From Candidatus Providencia siddallii (GTDB lineage Bacteria > Pseudomonadota > Gammaproteobacteria > Enterobacterales > Enterobacteriaceae), in assembly GCF_964026685.1 (NCBI RefSeq), contig NZ_OZ034688.1, positions 696,442-720,441 of the forward strand: 24,000 nucleotides of DNA, in the 5' to 3' direction. Shown one piece after another: positions 3,669 to 22,906 of this stretch. Every line of letters starts with the position of its first letter. Positions within the stretch are counted from its first letter, which is position 1. A model generated the notes under the pieces. That model did no database searches. It saw nothing but the letters and a program-made list of their open reading frames with translations, and was not told where the DNA came from. The translations under genes were made by a program, and so were the position numbers.

Positions 3669-5207
3669 TTATTTTATATTAAGTTTTATAAAACTTAAAA
3701 ATCTAAAACCTAATATAAACAATGTAATAAAATAACTTATTCCACCAATAAAAATTACTAAAAATAAATAAAACATTCTTATTAACATACCTTTTTCATA
3801 TATAAAAGGTATACAATCTATCATAATAGATAAAACAGATCCCATAACAAATAAAGCTATTAATAATTTTAAAAAAAATATTTTCCATCCAAATAAAGGT
3901 TTATATATTTTTTGTTTTAATAATTGCCAATACAAAAGACCAGCATTAAAACATGCTGCTACACCTGTAGAAAGAGCAAGGCCAACATGTTGTAATTTTA
4001 TAACAAATATTAAATTCATCAATTGAGTTAAAATTAATGTAAAAATAGCTATTTTTACAGGAGTAACTGTATCCTGCCTAGAATAAAAACCAGGAGCTAA
4101 TATTTTAACTAAAATAATTCCTGTTAATCCTATACAATATGCAATTAAAGCATATTGCGTCATTAATGAATCATAAGCAGTAAAATTACTATATTGAAAT
4201 AATGATATAATTAATATTTTAGATAAAATAGCTAAACCTAATGCGCACGGCAAAGTTAATAATAAACATAAACGCAAACTCCAATCTATTAATTGATGAT
4301 ATTCAATTTTATTATTATTAATAAAACTTTTAGTTAATAAAGGTAATAAAATAGTACTAATCGCAACACCTAAAATACCTGAAGGTAATTCCATTAATCT
4401 ATCTGCATAATACATCCATGAAATTGAACCAGGTTGTAAAAATGAAGCAAATATTGTATTTATAATTAATGAAATTTGCGCAACAGATACCCCAATAATA
4501 GCTGGCCACATCATTTTTATAACCCTAAAAACACCTTGATTTTTAAATGAAAAACGTGGTAAAACTAACATACCAATTTTTTTAAGATAAGGTAATTGAT
4601 ATAAAAATTGTAATAAACCTCCAAATAATACTGACCATCCCAACGCTATAATTGGTGGATTAAAAAATGATGTTGCAAAAATAGAAAATACAATCATACA
4701 AATATTTAATAATGTTGGGGTAAAAGCTGGCACTAAAAAACGATTCCAAATATTAAGAATTGCACCAACAAGAGCACTTAACGAAATAAAAAAAATATAA
4801 GGAAATGTAATACGTAATAATTTTATTGTTAATTCATATTTATTTAAATATTTACTAATACCTGGCGCTGCAAGATAAATTATTCAAGGAGCACTAATAA
4901 ATCCAATAAAAGTTACAATTGAAAGAACTAAAGTTAACATTCCAGCAATATAAGAAATAAAAATACGAGTAGCTTCCTTTCCTTTTTTATTTTTATATTC
5001 AGTAAGTATTGGGATAAATGCTTGAGAAAAAGCCCCTTCAGCAAAAATTCTACGTAATAAATTAGGAAGTTTGAATGCTATAAAAAAAGCATCCGCTGCC
5101 TCCCCAGCACCAAATATTCTAGCAATTATAGCATCACGAATAAATCCAAAAATTCTAGACATTATCGTCATAAAACTAATTTTTGTTAATATTTTAAATA
5201 AATTCAT
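3669..5207 (-). CDS. murJ: Lipid II flippase MurJ (MviN), 512 aa if the single in-frame TGA at 4884-4886 is read as Trp
   Basis: ORF-track fragments 4884..5207 and 3669..4733 are in the same frame, and the stretch between them has no other stop. My translation across the junction is ...[68 protein letters not shown]... The E. coli MurJ sequence from memory is ...MLAAPWVIMVTAPGF...[39 protein letters not shown]. The N-terminus [35 protein letters not shown] also matches. Length is 512 aa versus 511 in E. coli. TAA stop. Confidence 0.9.
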
Positions 5208-5795
5208 AATTTATAATTCTAAAAATTAATATATCAAATAATAAATAGTTATTTATATTAAATAAATAAAACAAAATATTAAAAATAAAAAAAATATACT
5301 AAATATTTTTTTTAAAATTAATTAAATTAATTTTTAATAATTATATTTTCTTTAAAAAAAATAATTTTACATTTATTTTTTAAAACATAATTAATTATTA
5401 TATTTTATATTTTTGTAATTTTTACAATATTTTATTAATTAATAATATAATATATTTTTATTTAATTATTTAACTATTAAATTTTAATTCTTTTAAAAAA
5501 AATATTATAAATATAATACTATTAATAAAATAAAATTATTTAAATATATAAATAACTTTAATTTATACTATTTTAAAAAAATATAATATATTATCTATAA
5601 AAATTAAAACTTTTTAAAAAAATTACTACTTAAATTATAAATTTTGTTTATCTTTTTATTTTATATAATATTATTTATTTAATATTTTTATTAAATTAAT
5701 ACTTAACTCATATAACTAAATATTAATTGTATAAAAACTAAACATAATATATATTATAAAAATTAAATATATATTATATTTTACTTTAAATATAT

Positions 5796-5880
5796 GGTGA
5801 GATGTCCGAGAGGATGAAGGAGCACGTTTGGAAAATGTGTATACTAAAATGTATCGAGGGTTCAAATCCCTCTCTCACCG
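5796..5880 (+). tRNA. tRNA-Ser (anticodon GGA), type II with long variable arm; no encoded CCA
   Basis: The acceptor GGTGAGA pairs with TCTCACC and is followed by discriminator G. The anticodon stem is CACGT/ATGTG with loop TTGGAAA, giving anticodon GGA. The long variable arm is TATACTAAAATGTATC. The T arm is GAGGG-TTCAAAT-CCCTC. The downstream sequence is CAT, not CCA. Confidence 0.93.
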
Positions 5881-6192
5881 CATGAAATAAAATTAATTTT
5901 TTTAAAAATAAAAAAAACAAAAAATATTTTTATAAAAAATAAAATATTACAAATTATTATTAATAATATTCATTATATGTATATATTATAAATTATTATA
6001 TAAATATAAATAAAATAAACATAAATAATATTTTATTATAAAAAATTTTAATATATTAAATATTTCCTATTAAAATTATATTAACAATAAATATAATTTT
6101 ATAAAAAAATACTTTTTTACAAAATTATCTATTTTTATAAAACAAATATAAAAAATAATAGATTTTTAAAAATCTAAAAATAAAAATAAAAT

Positions 6193-7074
6193 TTAAAATA
6201 AAAAAAATAAATATAAAAATCAATTATTAATATCTATTTTAGAAAAACTTTTTACCAATTCATCTATCGCTTTTATTTGTATTAAAAAAGGTTCTAACTT
6301 ATCTAATGGTAATGCAGAAAAACCATCACATTTTGCATCATCAGGATTTGGGTGAGATTCTAAAAACAAACCAGCTAAACCAATTGCTATACCAGATCTA
6401 GCTAATTCTAATACTTGGGAACGACGACCACCAGAAACAAAAGAAAATGGTTCACGATATTGCAATGAGTGTGTTACATCAAAAATTACAGGATACCCAT
6501 TAGAAACTTTCTTCATAACATTAAAGCCTAACATATCAACTAACAAATTGTCATATCCAAAACTTGTACCACGTTCACATAAAATAATTTTATCATTACC
6601 ATTTTTAATAAATTTTTCAATAATATTTCCAATTTGATTAGGATTAATAAATTGTGGTTTTTTTATATTAACAACAACATTTGTTTTTGCTATAGATTTT
6701 ATTAAATCAGTTTGACGTGCTAAAAAAGCAGGTAATTGAATTACATCAACCACTTCAGAAACAATTTTTGCTTGTTTTGGCTCATGTATATCTGTAATAA
6801 TTTTTACATTAAACGTTTGTTTTAATTCTTGAAATATCTTTAAACTTTCTTCTAATCCTAAACCACGATAAGAATATATTGATGTTCTATTTGCTTTATC
6901 AAAAGAAGCTTTAAATACATAAAAAACATTTAATTTAAAAGTAACATTAACATAATGTTCACACACTCTCATTGCAATATCACGAGATTCAAGCACATTC
7001 ATCCCGCCAAAAAGAACAAAAGGCAAATCATTTGCTACACTAATATTACCAATATTAATTATTTTATGTTGCAT
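6193..7074 (-). CDS. kdsA: 3-deoxy-8-phosphooctulonate (KDO-8-P) synthase. Homology ends at the TGA at 6220-6222 (284 aa); the coordinates shown extend to the next TAA, assuming UGA is read through
   Basis: The 284-aa ORF is colinear with E. coli KdsA (also 284 aa, from memory). Shared segments include [69 protein letters not shown] and KCDG.SALPL.KLEPF. The frame ends on TGA. If UGA is Trp, the product gains WFYYLFFLF before the TAA at 6193-6195. Confidence 0.93.
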
Positions 7075-21158: not shown

Positions 21159-21194
21159 AATAAAATCCTAATAAAGATTATAATTATAGTTATA

Positions 21195-22082
21195 TTAATT
21201 TTTAGGTAAATAAGATAATTCATTAGAAAATGATTCTGCTAATAAATCACCAACACGTGTTATACAACCAAGATGTAAAGAATTATTAAAAAAAATTTTA
21301 TTTGGTTCAAATAAATTTATAACAGTTGATCCTAACTTAAACATACCCATTTCTTCCCCTTTTTTTAAAAATATAGAACCTTTTAAATTAAAATCTGGAT
21401 ATATAAAATGATTAATTTTATTTTTTCTATAAGAATTAACACATCCAAACCATACAGTACTTATACTACCTACAATTATAGCGCCAACTAAAATTTGAAT
21501 CATTAAACCAATATCTGTTTTAAATACACAAATTAAACGTTCATTACGTGAAAATAAATTAGGTATTTTTTTAACAGAAAATAAATTAACAGAAAATAAA
21601 TCACCGGGTACATAAATCATTTCCTTTAATAAACCATCACATGGCATATGAACACGATGATAATCACTTGGAGATAAATAAATAGTAATAAAATTTCCAT
21701 TTTTAAATTTATCAATTAAATAATGTTTTTTTACTAACAAATTATTTAAAGTATAAAAATTTTTTTTTGCTTGAAAAAGATAAATATCATTAATAGAACC
21801 AAATTGACTAATAGTGCCGTCAACAGGATATGCTACTTGATATTTTTTTGAAACAATTTTACGTGCATTCTTTTTTAAAGAACGAACAAAAAAATCATTA
21901 AATGTTGCATAATCTTTTAAATTAGTATATTTCGCTTCATTTATATTAATTTTATAAATTTTTACAAAAAACTTTATCATAAAAAAAGTTATATATTTAA
22001 TTTTTTTATTAGCAAACCATCCAAAAAATTGAGTTATCCATAATTTAATTATATATTTTGTAAATATTTTACTTTTTAACAT
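21195..22082 (-). CDS. psd: Phosphatidylserine decarboxylase proenzyme
   Basis: 295-aa ORF with the self-cleavage LGST motif (MFKLGSTVINLF) plus YHRVHMPCDG.LKEMIYVPGDLFSVN and NERLICVF..., colinear with E. coli Psd. The acidic C-terminal tail of the E. coli protein is missing. TAA stop. Confidence 0.95.
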   Translation of the reverse strand: MLKSKIFTKYIIKLWITQFFGWFANKKIKYITFFMIKFFVKIYKININEAKYTNLKDYATFNDFFVRSLKKNARKIVSKKYQVAYPVDGTISQFGSINDIYLFQAKKNFYTLNNLLVKKHYLIDKFKNGNFITIYLSPSDYHRVHMPCDGLLKEMIYVPGDLFSVNLFSVKKIPNLFSRNERLICVFKTDIGLMIQILVGAIIVGSISTVWFGCVNSYRKNKINHFIYPDFNLKGSIFLKKGEEMGMFKLGSTVINLFEPNKIFFNNSLHLGCITRVGDLLAESFSNELSYLPKN

Positions 22083-22366
22083 GTATTTTCCTTTTTTTTT
22101 ACAAAAAAATATGTTTTACTTATTTTTTACTTTTTTAATATATCTAAATAAAATTATTATATTTTATCAATTAAAAACTTTAAAAATTAAAATCAATAAT
22201 TTTTAAAATTTTATAAAAAAATAAATTAAAATTTTAATTTTTTATAATATAAAATTATTTTTTTAAAATATTAAAATTATATATTTTATATATCTATATA
22301 AAATATTTTTAATAATATTAAAATTTCATTTATGACGTTTTTTTAAAAAACATATATATATTTATT

Positions 22367-22906
22367 ATGAAAAAAAACAATAATTTAATTTGGATTGATC
22401 TTGAAATGACAGGTCTTCATCCAATTCGTAATCGTATTATTGAAATAGCAACTATTATAACTGACAAAAATATTAATATTTTAGCAAAAGGACCTGTTAT
22501 TCCAATTTATCAAACAGAAAAACAACTTAATTTAATGGACAAATGGAATATCACAACACATGTTACTCATGGTTTAATAGAACGTGTTAGAAAAAGTTCT
22601 TTTAACGAACGAGATGCTGAACTAATAACAATTAATTTTTTAAAACAATGGGTTAAAAAAGGAAGCTCTCCTATCTGTGGTAATACCATTGGGTTAGATA
22701 GACAATTTTTATTTAATTATATGCCTGAACTAGAAAACTTTTTTCATTATCGCTATATTGATGTTAGTACAATAAAAGAATTAGCTTTACGTTGAAAACC
22801 ATCGATTTTAAATAAATTTACTAAAAAAAATACACATCAAGCTTCAAACGATATTATAGAATCTATAAATGAATTATTATTTTATAAAAAATATTTTTTT
22901 AAATAA
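22367..22906 (+). CDS. orn: Oligoribonuclease, 179 aa if the in-frame TGA at 22793-22795 is read as Trp
   Basis: The track ORF ends ...[18 protein letters not shown]. The same frame continues [40 protein letters not shown]. coli Orn from memory reads ...[43 protein letters not shown]... The DEDDh motifs are WIDLEMTGL (Exo I) and H-x4-D ([11 protein letters not shown], Exo III); the latter lies after the TGA. Length is 179 aa versus 181 in E. coli. Confidence 0.9.

Follow-up and report, generated by a model that had tools for sequence, protein, structure and literature searches.

Can one codon mean tryptophan at some positions and stop at others within the same genome, and does the base that follows it tell the two uses apart? 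This question is raised by a window of 24,000 nucleotides (the whole stretch of DNA that was analysed, to which the coordinates given below for murJ, ispE, orn, kdsA, lolB, prfA and prmC refer) from the genome of the leech symbiont 'Candidatus Providencia siddallii'. The genome comprises 755,758 bp, is under strong AT pressure (22.0% GC) and encodes a tmRNA. It is almost certainly the PSAC genome of Manzano-Marin, Kvist and Oceguera-Figueroa (2023; PMC10540940), which it resembles in its size of 756 kb, its 22.0% GC, its 33 tRNAs, its trnW-CCA and a prfB with one in-frame UGA. In the main text of that paper PSAC is described as an early stage of UGA-to-Trp reassignment (code 11 to code 4) which keeps prfB and tRNA-Trp(CCA), has 125 genes with internal TGA and retains some genes, kdsA among them, that still stop at UGA. 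Reassignment, retention of RF2 and the idea of dual use have thus been in print since 2023, while the effect of a 3' A known from E. coli is invoked there for the UGA inside prfB only. A genome-wide UGA context rule was not found in the literature searched, including the main text of that paper. What we add is such a rule, with a near-total exclusion of UGA-U from Trp sites, an effect of Pro, Thr and Gly at -1 and the controls for both, as well as a preference for T after derived TGA stops and a ranking of prfB by its conservation. For comparison we used one sister strain and one outgroup, of whose genome 79% was covered.

Five UGA codons in the window

The initial annotation had noticed that TGA is followed by A at three conserved Trp positions of the window and by T at two ancestral gene ends, and all five sites were found as described (genes were named by NCBIfam equivalog models). 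The in-frame TGA of murJ (3669..5207, minus strand, 512 codons with TGA read as Trp; TIGR01695, 503.9 bits) lies at 4884-4886 in the context CCT TGA ATA, i.e. Pro-TGA-A, which is the most permissive context genome-wide; the sister has TGG there and the outgroup W, and homology continues for 404 codons downstream. In ispE (12432..13295, minus strand, 287 codons with TGA as Trp; TIGR00154, 268.4 bits) the codon at 12510-12512 is embedded in ACA TGA ATA, the second most permissive context (Thr-TGA-A), has the same counterparts in sister and outgroup as the murJ site, and is passed by the profile, which extends to position 290 of 294. The third, at 22793-22795 in orn (22367..22906, plus strand, 179 codons with TGA as Trp; NF003765, 263.1 bits), follows Arg in CGT TGA AAA and is TGG in the sister, and the oligoribonuclease profile extends 36 codons past it. 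Homology stops at the other two. The terminal TGA of kdsA (6220-6222, minus strand, AAT TGA TTT) comes after a complete profile match (281/281) that ends at residue 283 of 284; read-through would add nine residues, up to a TAA at 6193-6195, and the terminal codon is TAA in the sister and TGA in the outgroup. The terminal TGA of lolB (13292-13294, minus strand, AAA TGA TTC) overlaps the start of ispE (ATGA), the profile reaching 201 of 202 at residue 206; a second in-frame TGA lies two codons further on (13286-13288, minus strand), and the terminus is TGA in the sister and outgroup as well. Five sites by themselves prove little (exact p = 0.1 for the 3-versus-2 split), and the pattern had been put forward only as a lead, with a chance of about 1 in 30. 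It is nevertheless far more than chance, since the same pattern is present genome-wide.

Context of UGA at tryptophan positions and at gene ends

On the sense side we examined the 1,650 Trp positions at which the sister has TGG; 107 of them (6.5%) are converted to TGA here. The base at +4 of the converted sites is A in 85, G in 18, C in three and T in a single case, compared with A504/G327/C236/T476 at retained TGG (chi2 = 104, p = 2e-22). The converted share falls with the +4 base from 14.4% (A) to 5.2% (G), 1.3% (C) and 0.2% (T). The effect holds with outgroup-defined Trp sites (p = 5e-11) and within TGA-bearing genes alone (p = 3e-20). Our ortholog-based tally contains 133 internal TGAs in 104 genes, compared with the 125 genes published; 107 of them have TGG as their counterpart in the sister, and for 76 the outgroup has W. 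The signal is found at +4, is weaker at +5 and in the preceding codon and is absent by +7, a decay with distance that is expected for an effect in the A and P sites. The base at +5 also affects conversion. None of 139 TGG-TTA, 109 TGG-TTT and 71 TGG-TAT sites has been converted, while the proportion is 21.5% for TGG-AAA, AAA (Lys) being the commonest codon after Trp sites. The neighboring base has itself changed: +4 became A at 20 of 41 TGA sites compared with 129 of 1063 TGG sites (p = 3e-8), and an A at +4 was retained at 65 of 66 TGA sites compared with 375 of 480 TGG sites (p = 8e-6).

The residue before UGA matters too. Conversion reaches 27% after Pro (OR 6, p = 2e-7), 15.5% after Thr and 11.5% after Gly, and 13 of 22 sites (59%) with Pro before and A at +4 are converted. 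Peptide release by release factors is slowest on Pro and Gly (Pierson 2016 and Hayes 2002, as cited in PMC7246954), with which the raised conversion after these P-site residues agrees. The residue at -1, the bases at +4 and +5 and gene conservation together tell which Trp codons are converted and which are not (cross-validated AUC 0.84, compared with 0.75 for +4 alone). The proposal that the base after TGA separates sense from stop is decisively supported on the sense side and moderately on the stop side, but not in its binary form: the effect falls off by degrees from A through G and C to T, with no clean switch between A and T, and the -1 residue and +5 contribute.

At gene ends, TGA coincides with the end of homology in 31 genes. 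T follows in 21 of these (68%), compared with 45.5% after TAA (p = 0.025; T versus A, p = 0.010), an excess in the proposed direction though weaker than the sense effect; A follows in seven, all with tails of at most nine codons. Most tails after terminal TGA are short, and those after TGA-T match the random background and are not shortened. Fifteen TGA stops stand where the sister and the outgroup both have TAA or TAG, and are apparently new in this lineage; T is at +4 of 12 of them (p = 0.007), and the would-be read-through tails include ones of 40 and 90 codons. The sister shows a similar T excess after its TGA stops, which means that this half of the pattern is not specific to the genome studied, and suggests that the ambiguity may be older than the split of the two strains. 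Statistics on the stop side are modest (p about 0.01-0.03, n = 31).

Release factors, tRNA-Trp and explanations of the pattern

The initial annotation had made context-dependent use conditional on the presence of RF2, and its gene is present. The prfB product scores 470 bits against a curated cut-off of 370, its SPF and GGQ motifs are intact, and its 73.8% identity to the sister's places it at the 69th percentile of all genes, i.e. it is as conserved as a typical gene. It carries one in-frame UGA at a conserved Trp codon, in the context Ile-UGA-AAAAAAA. Autoregulation of prfB classically works by a programmed +1 frameshift at CUU UGA C, a site that neither this genome nor the sister nor the outgroup has; prfB is a single frame in all three. 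The RF1 gene prfA (8165..9244, minus strand) is intact, with 287 bits to the RF family and the PET form of the PxT motif common to the sister and outgroup, and the machinery for termination at UAA and UAG is kept. Next to it prmC, the release-factor glutamine methyltransferase (7335..8165, minus strand; named from its position by prfA and PMC10540940), is intact, an open frame with no in-frame TGA. The genome has a single tRNA-Trp with anticodon CCA and none with UCA. This tRNA, like that of E. coli, has an anticodon stem of 5 bp (CCGGU/ACCGG) and not of 4 bp, and it lacks the Hirsh-type G24A change.

The best explanation, and in our opinion a probable one, is a context-dependent competition between RF2 and tRNA-Trp. 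Each UGA would be contested by RF2 and the ordinary tRNA-Trp(CCA), the latter reading its third position through a C-A mismatch, and the local context would pick the winner: A at +4 (G less so) and a nascent chain ending in Pro, Thr or Gly would favor the tRNA, and U at +4 would favor RF2. TGG-to-TGA mutations would be tolerated solely in tRNA-favoring contexts, and UGA-U would be purged from Trp positions and persist, or newly arise, at gene ends. RF2 is probably scarce, because its mRNA contains a Trp codon, Ile-UGA-AAAAAAA, at which RF2 itself could terminate. We infer the competition, the low RF2 level and real termination at UGA-U from sequence. The overall conversion of just 6.5% indicates that UGA is still selected against. 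UGA-C is not favored as a sense context (1.3%) although it is the weakest RF2 signal in E. coli, which indicates that RF2 cannot account for the whole +4 effect and that some of it must work through the tRNA. An early UGA whose fate hangs on RF2 abundance would give negative feedback, as frameshift autoregulation does, with the difference that the UGA of this prfB occupies a conserved Trp codon in the reading frame and would have to be read through, not shifted over. We are evenly divided on the fuller version, in which UGA is a two-meaning codon, Trp in Pro/Thr/Gly-UGA-A/G and stop in UGA-U, and the UGA-A in the RF2 mRNA acts as a sensor that replaces the lost frameshift autoregulation.

It is also conceivable, but unlikely, that RF2 is inactive or not made, prfB being interrupted by UGA, and that all UGAs are Trp or unassigned. 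The pattern at +4 and -1 would then reflect the ease with which tRNA-Trp(CCA) makes the C-A mismatch, helped by stacking of a 3' purine; UGA-U would be avoided because of ribosome stalling, and terminal TGAs would be relics that lead to a short tail or to rescue by tmRNA. In its order A > G > C > T the +4 effect does resemble the enhancement of suppressor tRNAs by a 3' purine more than the hierarchy of E. coli RF2, for which UGA-C is weakest (PMC5289835), and the UGA in prfB, the encoded tmRNA and the mostly short terminal tails are in accordance with such a state. Against it, prfB has remained as conserved as a typical gene despite saturated synonymous sites, with SPF and GGQ intact; the effect of Pro, Gly and Thr at -1 agrees with slow release by a release factor; TGA stops have seemingly been gained, mostly before T and in some cases adding 40 or 90 codons, and TGA-T tails are no shorter than background.

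Far less probable is a confound at the protein level, in which Trp before hydrophilic residues (Lys and Asn, mostly with A-starting codons) is less constrained and the nucleotide is irrelevant. The most conserved quartile of genes does convert less (3.9% versus 8.0%) and AAA is the most frequent next codon, but this account is contradicted by comparisons that hold the residue, or its hydrophobic character, constant: with Arg or Ser next, 6 of 50 sites before AGN were converted and none of 103 before CGN or TCN (p = 0.001), and among hydrophobic residues 20 of 219 before Ile or Met compared with 1 of 387 before Leu, Phe or Val (p = 1e-8). A mutational or compositional artefact (G-to-A change commoner before A, or TGA-bearing genes richer in A-starting codons) might be expected at 22% GC with A as the commonest first codon base (40%), but it can practically be dismissed: of 4,821 synonymous NNG sites 87-90% now end in A whichever base is at +4, so that mutational context is no explanation, T at +4 is excluded although equally AT-rich as A, all-frame counts of TGAA and TGAT are alike (9,864 versus 10,142), the signal ends at +6 and the within-gene control contradicts it as well.

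Comparison with known codes and meaning for reassignment

A close likeness to competition between RF2 and tRNA-Trp(CCA) is the leaky UGA read by wild-type tRNA-Trp in E. coli, together with the tetranucleotide stop signal (Engelberg-Kulka 1981; Kopelowitz 1992; Poole, Brown and Tate 1995, reviewed in PMC5289835). UGA-A is there the context most misread by tRNA-Trp, while with U at +4 read-through is lowest and cross-linking to RF2 is promoted (PMC5289835; PMC10540940). C-terminal Pro and Gly slow release, and the effects seen here run in the same direction. In E. coli, however, read-through of true stops is an error of low frequency, whereas in this symbiont it would be the normal route to some 100 or more proteins, of which many are essential, and would have shaped where the codon occurs; UGA-C, the leakiest signal of E. 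coli, is not favored. Hodgkinia, Nasuia, Zinderia, Stammera and Mycoplasma (NCBI table 4) share UGA at conserved Trp positions and an AT-rich reduced genome. According to PMC10540940, lineages that completed the change have lost prfB and have UGA in 50-70% of genes, and Zinderia and Stammera keep CCA. The present genome keeps CCA like these two, UCA being missing in all three, but it differs from completed lineages in that prfB is kept and conserved, UGA makes up only about 6.5% of the Trp codons and 31 genes still end in TGA. Internal UGA at conserved Trp positions of essential genes is thus the one feature of a full table 4 code that was found here, and RF2 loss, a lack of terminal UGA and a UCA anticodon were not. 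Some eukaryotic codes also seemingly use one codon for an amino acid and for stop in one genome. Discrimination there is attributed to nearness to the mRNA 3' end, or on a tRNA-Trp with a 4-bp anticodon stem together with an altered eRF1. This genome differs from these codes, described in Condylostoma and other ciliates (Swart 2016) and in Blastocrithidia (as cited in PMC13092985 and PMC10540940), in its normal 5-bp stem and in a signal that lies in the immediate -1 and +4 context.

It has long been asked how a stop codon can take on a sense meaning while the proteome stays functional, with codon capture and an ambiguous intermediate as the two answers. This genome records a selective filter, in which UGA spreads where release would be slow and near-cognate reading easy, and remains or even arises as a stop where release would be efficient. 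A verbal model could thereby be turned into quantitative, testable predictions of the Trp codons open to conversion, of safe stops and of the RF2 level required. For annotation neither table 11 nor table 4 is right, and local context together with gene conservation offers a practical rule; design rules for engineered dual-use codons are suggested as well. If UGA does carry two meanings as in the fuller version above, this would be the first natural bacterial ambiguous intermediate with a discrimination rule readable from the genome. The context pattern itself offers a rare natural view of a codon changing its meaning.

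Base following UGA at tryptophan positions

The window is the stretch 696,442-720,441 of one contig of 755,758 bp, whose GC content is 22.0%, and the genome carries 33 tRNA genes plus one tmRNA gene. For 'Candidatus Providencia siddallii' PSAC, which inhabits the bacteriome of the leech Haementeria acuecueyetzin, 756 kb, 22.0% GC and 33 tRNAs were reported, and its code was described as an early stage of the 11-to-4 change (PMC10540940). The same study suggested an onset of leaky UGA reading before the divergence of the strains, and invoked the E. coli read-through effect of a 3' A solely for the UGA within prfB. 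The organism, its reassignment and a dual use of UGA had thus been put forward before; no genome-wide analysis of UGA context was found in the main text of that paper or in the other literature searched, and what appears to be new is the context rule at genome scale, together with its P-site part and the controls given here.

Three genes of the window, all named by NCBIfam equivalogs as are the two that follow, contain an internal TGA past which homology continues: murJ (CCT TGA ATA), ispE (ACA TGA ATA) and orn (CGT TGA AAA). All three are aligned to TGG in the sister genome, which belongs to the same genus. In kdsA (AAT TGA TTT) and lolB (AAA TGA TTC, with a second TGA after it) homology stops at the TGA. 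The initial annotation had proposed that TGA followed by A is used at tryptophan positions and TGA followed by T at gene ends; the five positions and their next bases are as it described, and the pattern is real, while such a five-site split is weak evidence by itself (exact p=0.1).

A tally was made over the whole genome. Reading frames were bounded by TAA and TAG only, and orthologs were defined as reciprocal best hits with the sister genome (843,819 bp), which left 624 gene pairs once spurious overlapping frames and rRNA regions were dropped; 412 of the 624 also had a hit in the outgroup, a genome of the same family with 26% GC of which the first 1.6 Mb of 2.03 Mb was used. In-frame TGAs were classed from pairwise alignments, by the codon they align to and by homology on either side, and genes outside the window are identified by genome coordinates only. 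Among 1,650 tryptophan positions with TGG in the sister, 107 are TGA in the symbiont. The base after them (+4) is A in 85, G in 18, C in 3 and T in 1, versus A504/G327/C236/T476 after retained TGG (chi2=104, p=2e-22), so that the converted share is highest when A follows (14.4%), lower with G (5.2%) and C (1.3%), and lowest with T (0.2%). Tryptophan sites defined by the outgroup give the same picture (TGA A55/G15/C5/T1 vs TGG A288/G183/C134/T238, p=5e-11), as do all 133 internal TGAs, found in 104 genes (A103/G24/C5/T1), where the sole TGA-T, at genome position 76,163 on the minus strand, is preceded by Pro. A positional scan around converted codons placed the signal at +4 (p=7e-22), at +5 (p=7e-5, A favoured) and at positions 1 and 2 of the codon before (p about 1e-3), with none at +7 or beyond. 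No conversion was seen at 139 TGG-TTA, 109 TGG-TTT or 71 TGG-TAT sites, while TGG-AAA was converted in 21.5%. The support for the +4 rule at sense UGAs is decisive.

Three other causes of this bias were considered. Constraint on the neighbouring residue is ruled out by contrasts in which the next amino acid is the same (before Arg or Ser, AGN 6/50 converted vs CGN/TCN 0/103, p=0.001) or equally hydrophobic (Ile/Met 20/219 vs Leu/Phe/Val 1/387, p=1e-8). Regional or gene composition is ruled out as well: the contrast persists within TGA-bearing genes alone (p=3e-20), counts in all frames are nearly equal (TGAA 9,864 vs TGAT 10,142), and the signal is limited to -3..+5. Mutational context is excluded because the synonymous equilibrium between NNG and NNA is independent of the next base; at 4,821 synonymous sites where the sister has NNG, the share of codons with a final A in the symbiont is 87-90% for every +4 base, which means that these sites are saturated and that there is no neighbour-dependent G/A equilibrium. 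Against such saturation, TGA at only 6.5% of tryptophan codons indicates that it is still strongly selected against. The +4 base itself is under selection at TGA sites. Where the sister has a base other than A, the symbiont has A at 20/41 TGA sites vs 129/1,063 TGG sites (p=3e-8), and an A already present in the sister is retained at 65/66 TGA sites vs 375/480 TGG sites (p=8e-6).

Residue preceding the codon

The residue before the codon is a second determinant of conversion. After Pro 27% of tryptophan codons are converted (17/64; OR 6, p=2e-7), after Thr 15.5% and after Gly 11.5%, in comparison with 2-5% after Leu, Val, Asp, Glu, Gln or Lys; the 14% after His (4/29) is not significant (p=0.11). 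Combined with A at +4, Pro gives 13/22 and Thr 10/25 converted codons, and the two best sense contexts of the window are of these kinds, Pro-TGA-A in murJ and Thr-TGA-A in ispE. According to the passages of PMC7246954 that cite Pierson 2016, Hayes 2002 and Bjornsson 1996, release mediated by RF1 and RF2 is slowest on C-terminal Pro and Gly, termination in E. coli is stalled by a Pro at the C-terminus, and bacterial C-termini are depleted in Thr. A logistic model with the preceding residue, +4, +5 and gene conservation separated converted from unconverted tryptophan codons with a cross-validated AUC of 0.84, compared with 0.75 for +4 alone. Conversion in the most conserved quartile of genes is half as frequent as in the others.

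UGA at gene ends

A TGA stands at the end of homology in 31 genes after curation, in which two internal TGAs common to the sister were dropped, together with four aligned to a conserved Trp no more than four codons from the end, the classing of such near-terminal sites being partly a matter of judgement. In a fifth gene with a near-terminal, Trp-aligned TGA, a later TGA was counted as terminal. These five TGAs, at genome positions 209,464 (+), approximately 275,065 (-), 326,063 (+), 625,105 (-) and 748,321 (-), are all followed by A and lie two to four codons before the gene end in four cases and eight in the fifth; they may be read as Trp or may be slightly early stops.

At the 31 terminal TGAs the next base is T21/A7/G2/C1. 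The bases after TAA are A252/T239/C18/G16, a difference with p=0.025 for T vs non-T and p=0.010 for T vs A, and the subset of 23 situated within two codons of the sister's terminus gives p=0.0095. Fifteen of the termini look derived in the symbiont's lineage, because TAA or TAG is found there in sister and outgroup alike, and 12 of these 15 are followed by T (binomial p=0.007). One of the derived termini is at genome position 233,520 (-), outside the window, where a gene of ~129 codons ending in CGA GTT, probably rpsK from its length and the published list, is closed by TGA TGA in tandem; the sister has TAA TAA and the outgroup TAA at this place, so that two A-to-G substitutions counter to the AT bias are implied, and read-through would add 40 codons. 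At another, genome position 721,460, the corresponding tail would have 90 codons. Tails after terminal TGA-T are distributed as the random background, while all 7/7 TGA-A tails have at most nine codons (p about 0.03); shorter tails after TGA-A than after other terminal TGAs are only suggestive, tail length against +4 giving p=0.41 (Mann-Whitney). A direct comparison of sense with terminal TGAs, as the initial annotation had proposed, gives p=6e-16, which partly reflects coding versus intergenic composition, so that the decisive comparisons are those with the TGG and TAA baselines. The support for a T excess at terminal UGAs is moderate. A similar excess is seen at TGA stops of the sister (30/49 vs 44%, p=0.035) and is absent in the examined part of the outgroup (15/45 vs 49%), which is in accordance with the published idea of leaky UGA reading older than the strain split and hints that selection against read-through may predate the separation of the two symbiont strains.

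Release factors, tRNA-Trp and a proposed competition at UGA

Absence of RF2 would leave UGA unable to terminate in any context. Its gene prfB is present outside the window (617,459-618,556, +), reaches 470 bits with TIGR00020, whose cut-off is 370, and retains the SPF and GGQ motifs. It contains one in-frame TGA (ATT TGA AAAAAAA), found in this genome alone, at a Trp position conserved in RF2; the sister has W there, as does E. coli RF2. In symbiont, sister and outgroup alike prfB lacks the classical +1 frameshift site, CUU UGA C, and the in-frame TGA could be a replacement autoregulatory sensor of the RF2 level. RF1 (prfA) and PrmC are intact within the window, and no match to prfC (RF3) above the family cut-off was found in the whole genome, the best hits being other translational GTPases. 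The codon-recognition tripeptide of RF1 (window 8165-9244, -) is PET; as sister and outgroup have the identical tripeptide, this variant of PxT belongs to the lineage and was rejected as a trait of the reassignment.

The genome has a single tRNA-Trp (226,192-226,266). Its anticodon is CCA, the anticodon stem has 5 bp, and U11/G24 are present as in E. coli; one additional A in the D loop and a GU-to-AA change in the T loop are presumably all that sets it apart from the E. coli molecule. A special UGA-reading tRNA-Trp was rejected, there being no Hirsh G24A change and the anticodon stem having 5 bp. The sister's tRNA-Trp (contig C1 of that genome, 116,386-116,460) differs by U to C at position 11 and C to U at position 28, in the anticodon stem. 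The former would turn 11:24, where the Hirsh UGA suppressor carries its change, into a Watson-Crick pair; the symbiont retains U11 and C28 and has the D-loop and T-loop changes instead. An altered 16S decoding centre was also rejected, as the 530 loop, helix 34 around C1054 and the helix 44 motifs are unchanged. In the region of the 3' strand of helix 34, at about 34,700 of the genome, two symbiont-specific changes turn GGTGGGGATGACG into GGCGGGGACGACG, adjoining the otherwise invariant segment GACGTCAAGTCATCATGG.

The main rival explanation is that RF2 is inactive and that the tRNA alone accounts for the pattern at +4 and before the codon. Some of the +4 effect is probably on the tRNA side, through a 3' purine, since UGA-C is not favoured as a sense context. 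The explanation as a whole is disfavoured by the Pro/Gly/Thr signature before the codon, by the derived TGA-T stops and by the conservation of prfB, whose identity to the sister's gene is 73.8%, at the 69th percentile among all genes; with synonymous sites saturated, a decaying pseudogene would hardly be expected to show such typical conservation.

The data fit a competition between RF2 and tRNA-Trp, and the proposal of context-dependent UGA use is supported, decisively on the sense side and moderately on the stop side. Every UGA would be the site of a kinetic competition between RF2 and near-cognate tRNA-Trp, and TGG-to-TGA changes would be fixed only in contexts that in E. coli are known to weaken release or to help the tRNA, namely A or G at +4 and Pro or Gly in the P site. 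A U at +4 gives the strongest UGA stop in E. coli (PMC5289835), and in the symbiont this context is excluded from tryptophan positions and enriched at gene ends. We infer that UGA-U probably still terminates translation in this symbiont, and that the UGA-A inside prfB would make RF2 self-limiting.
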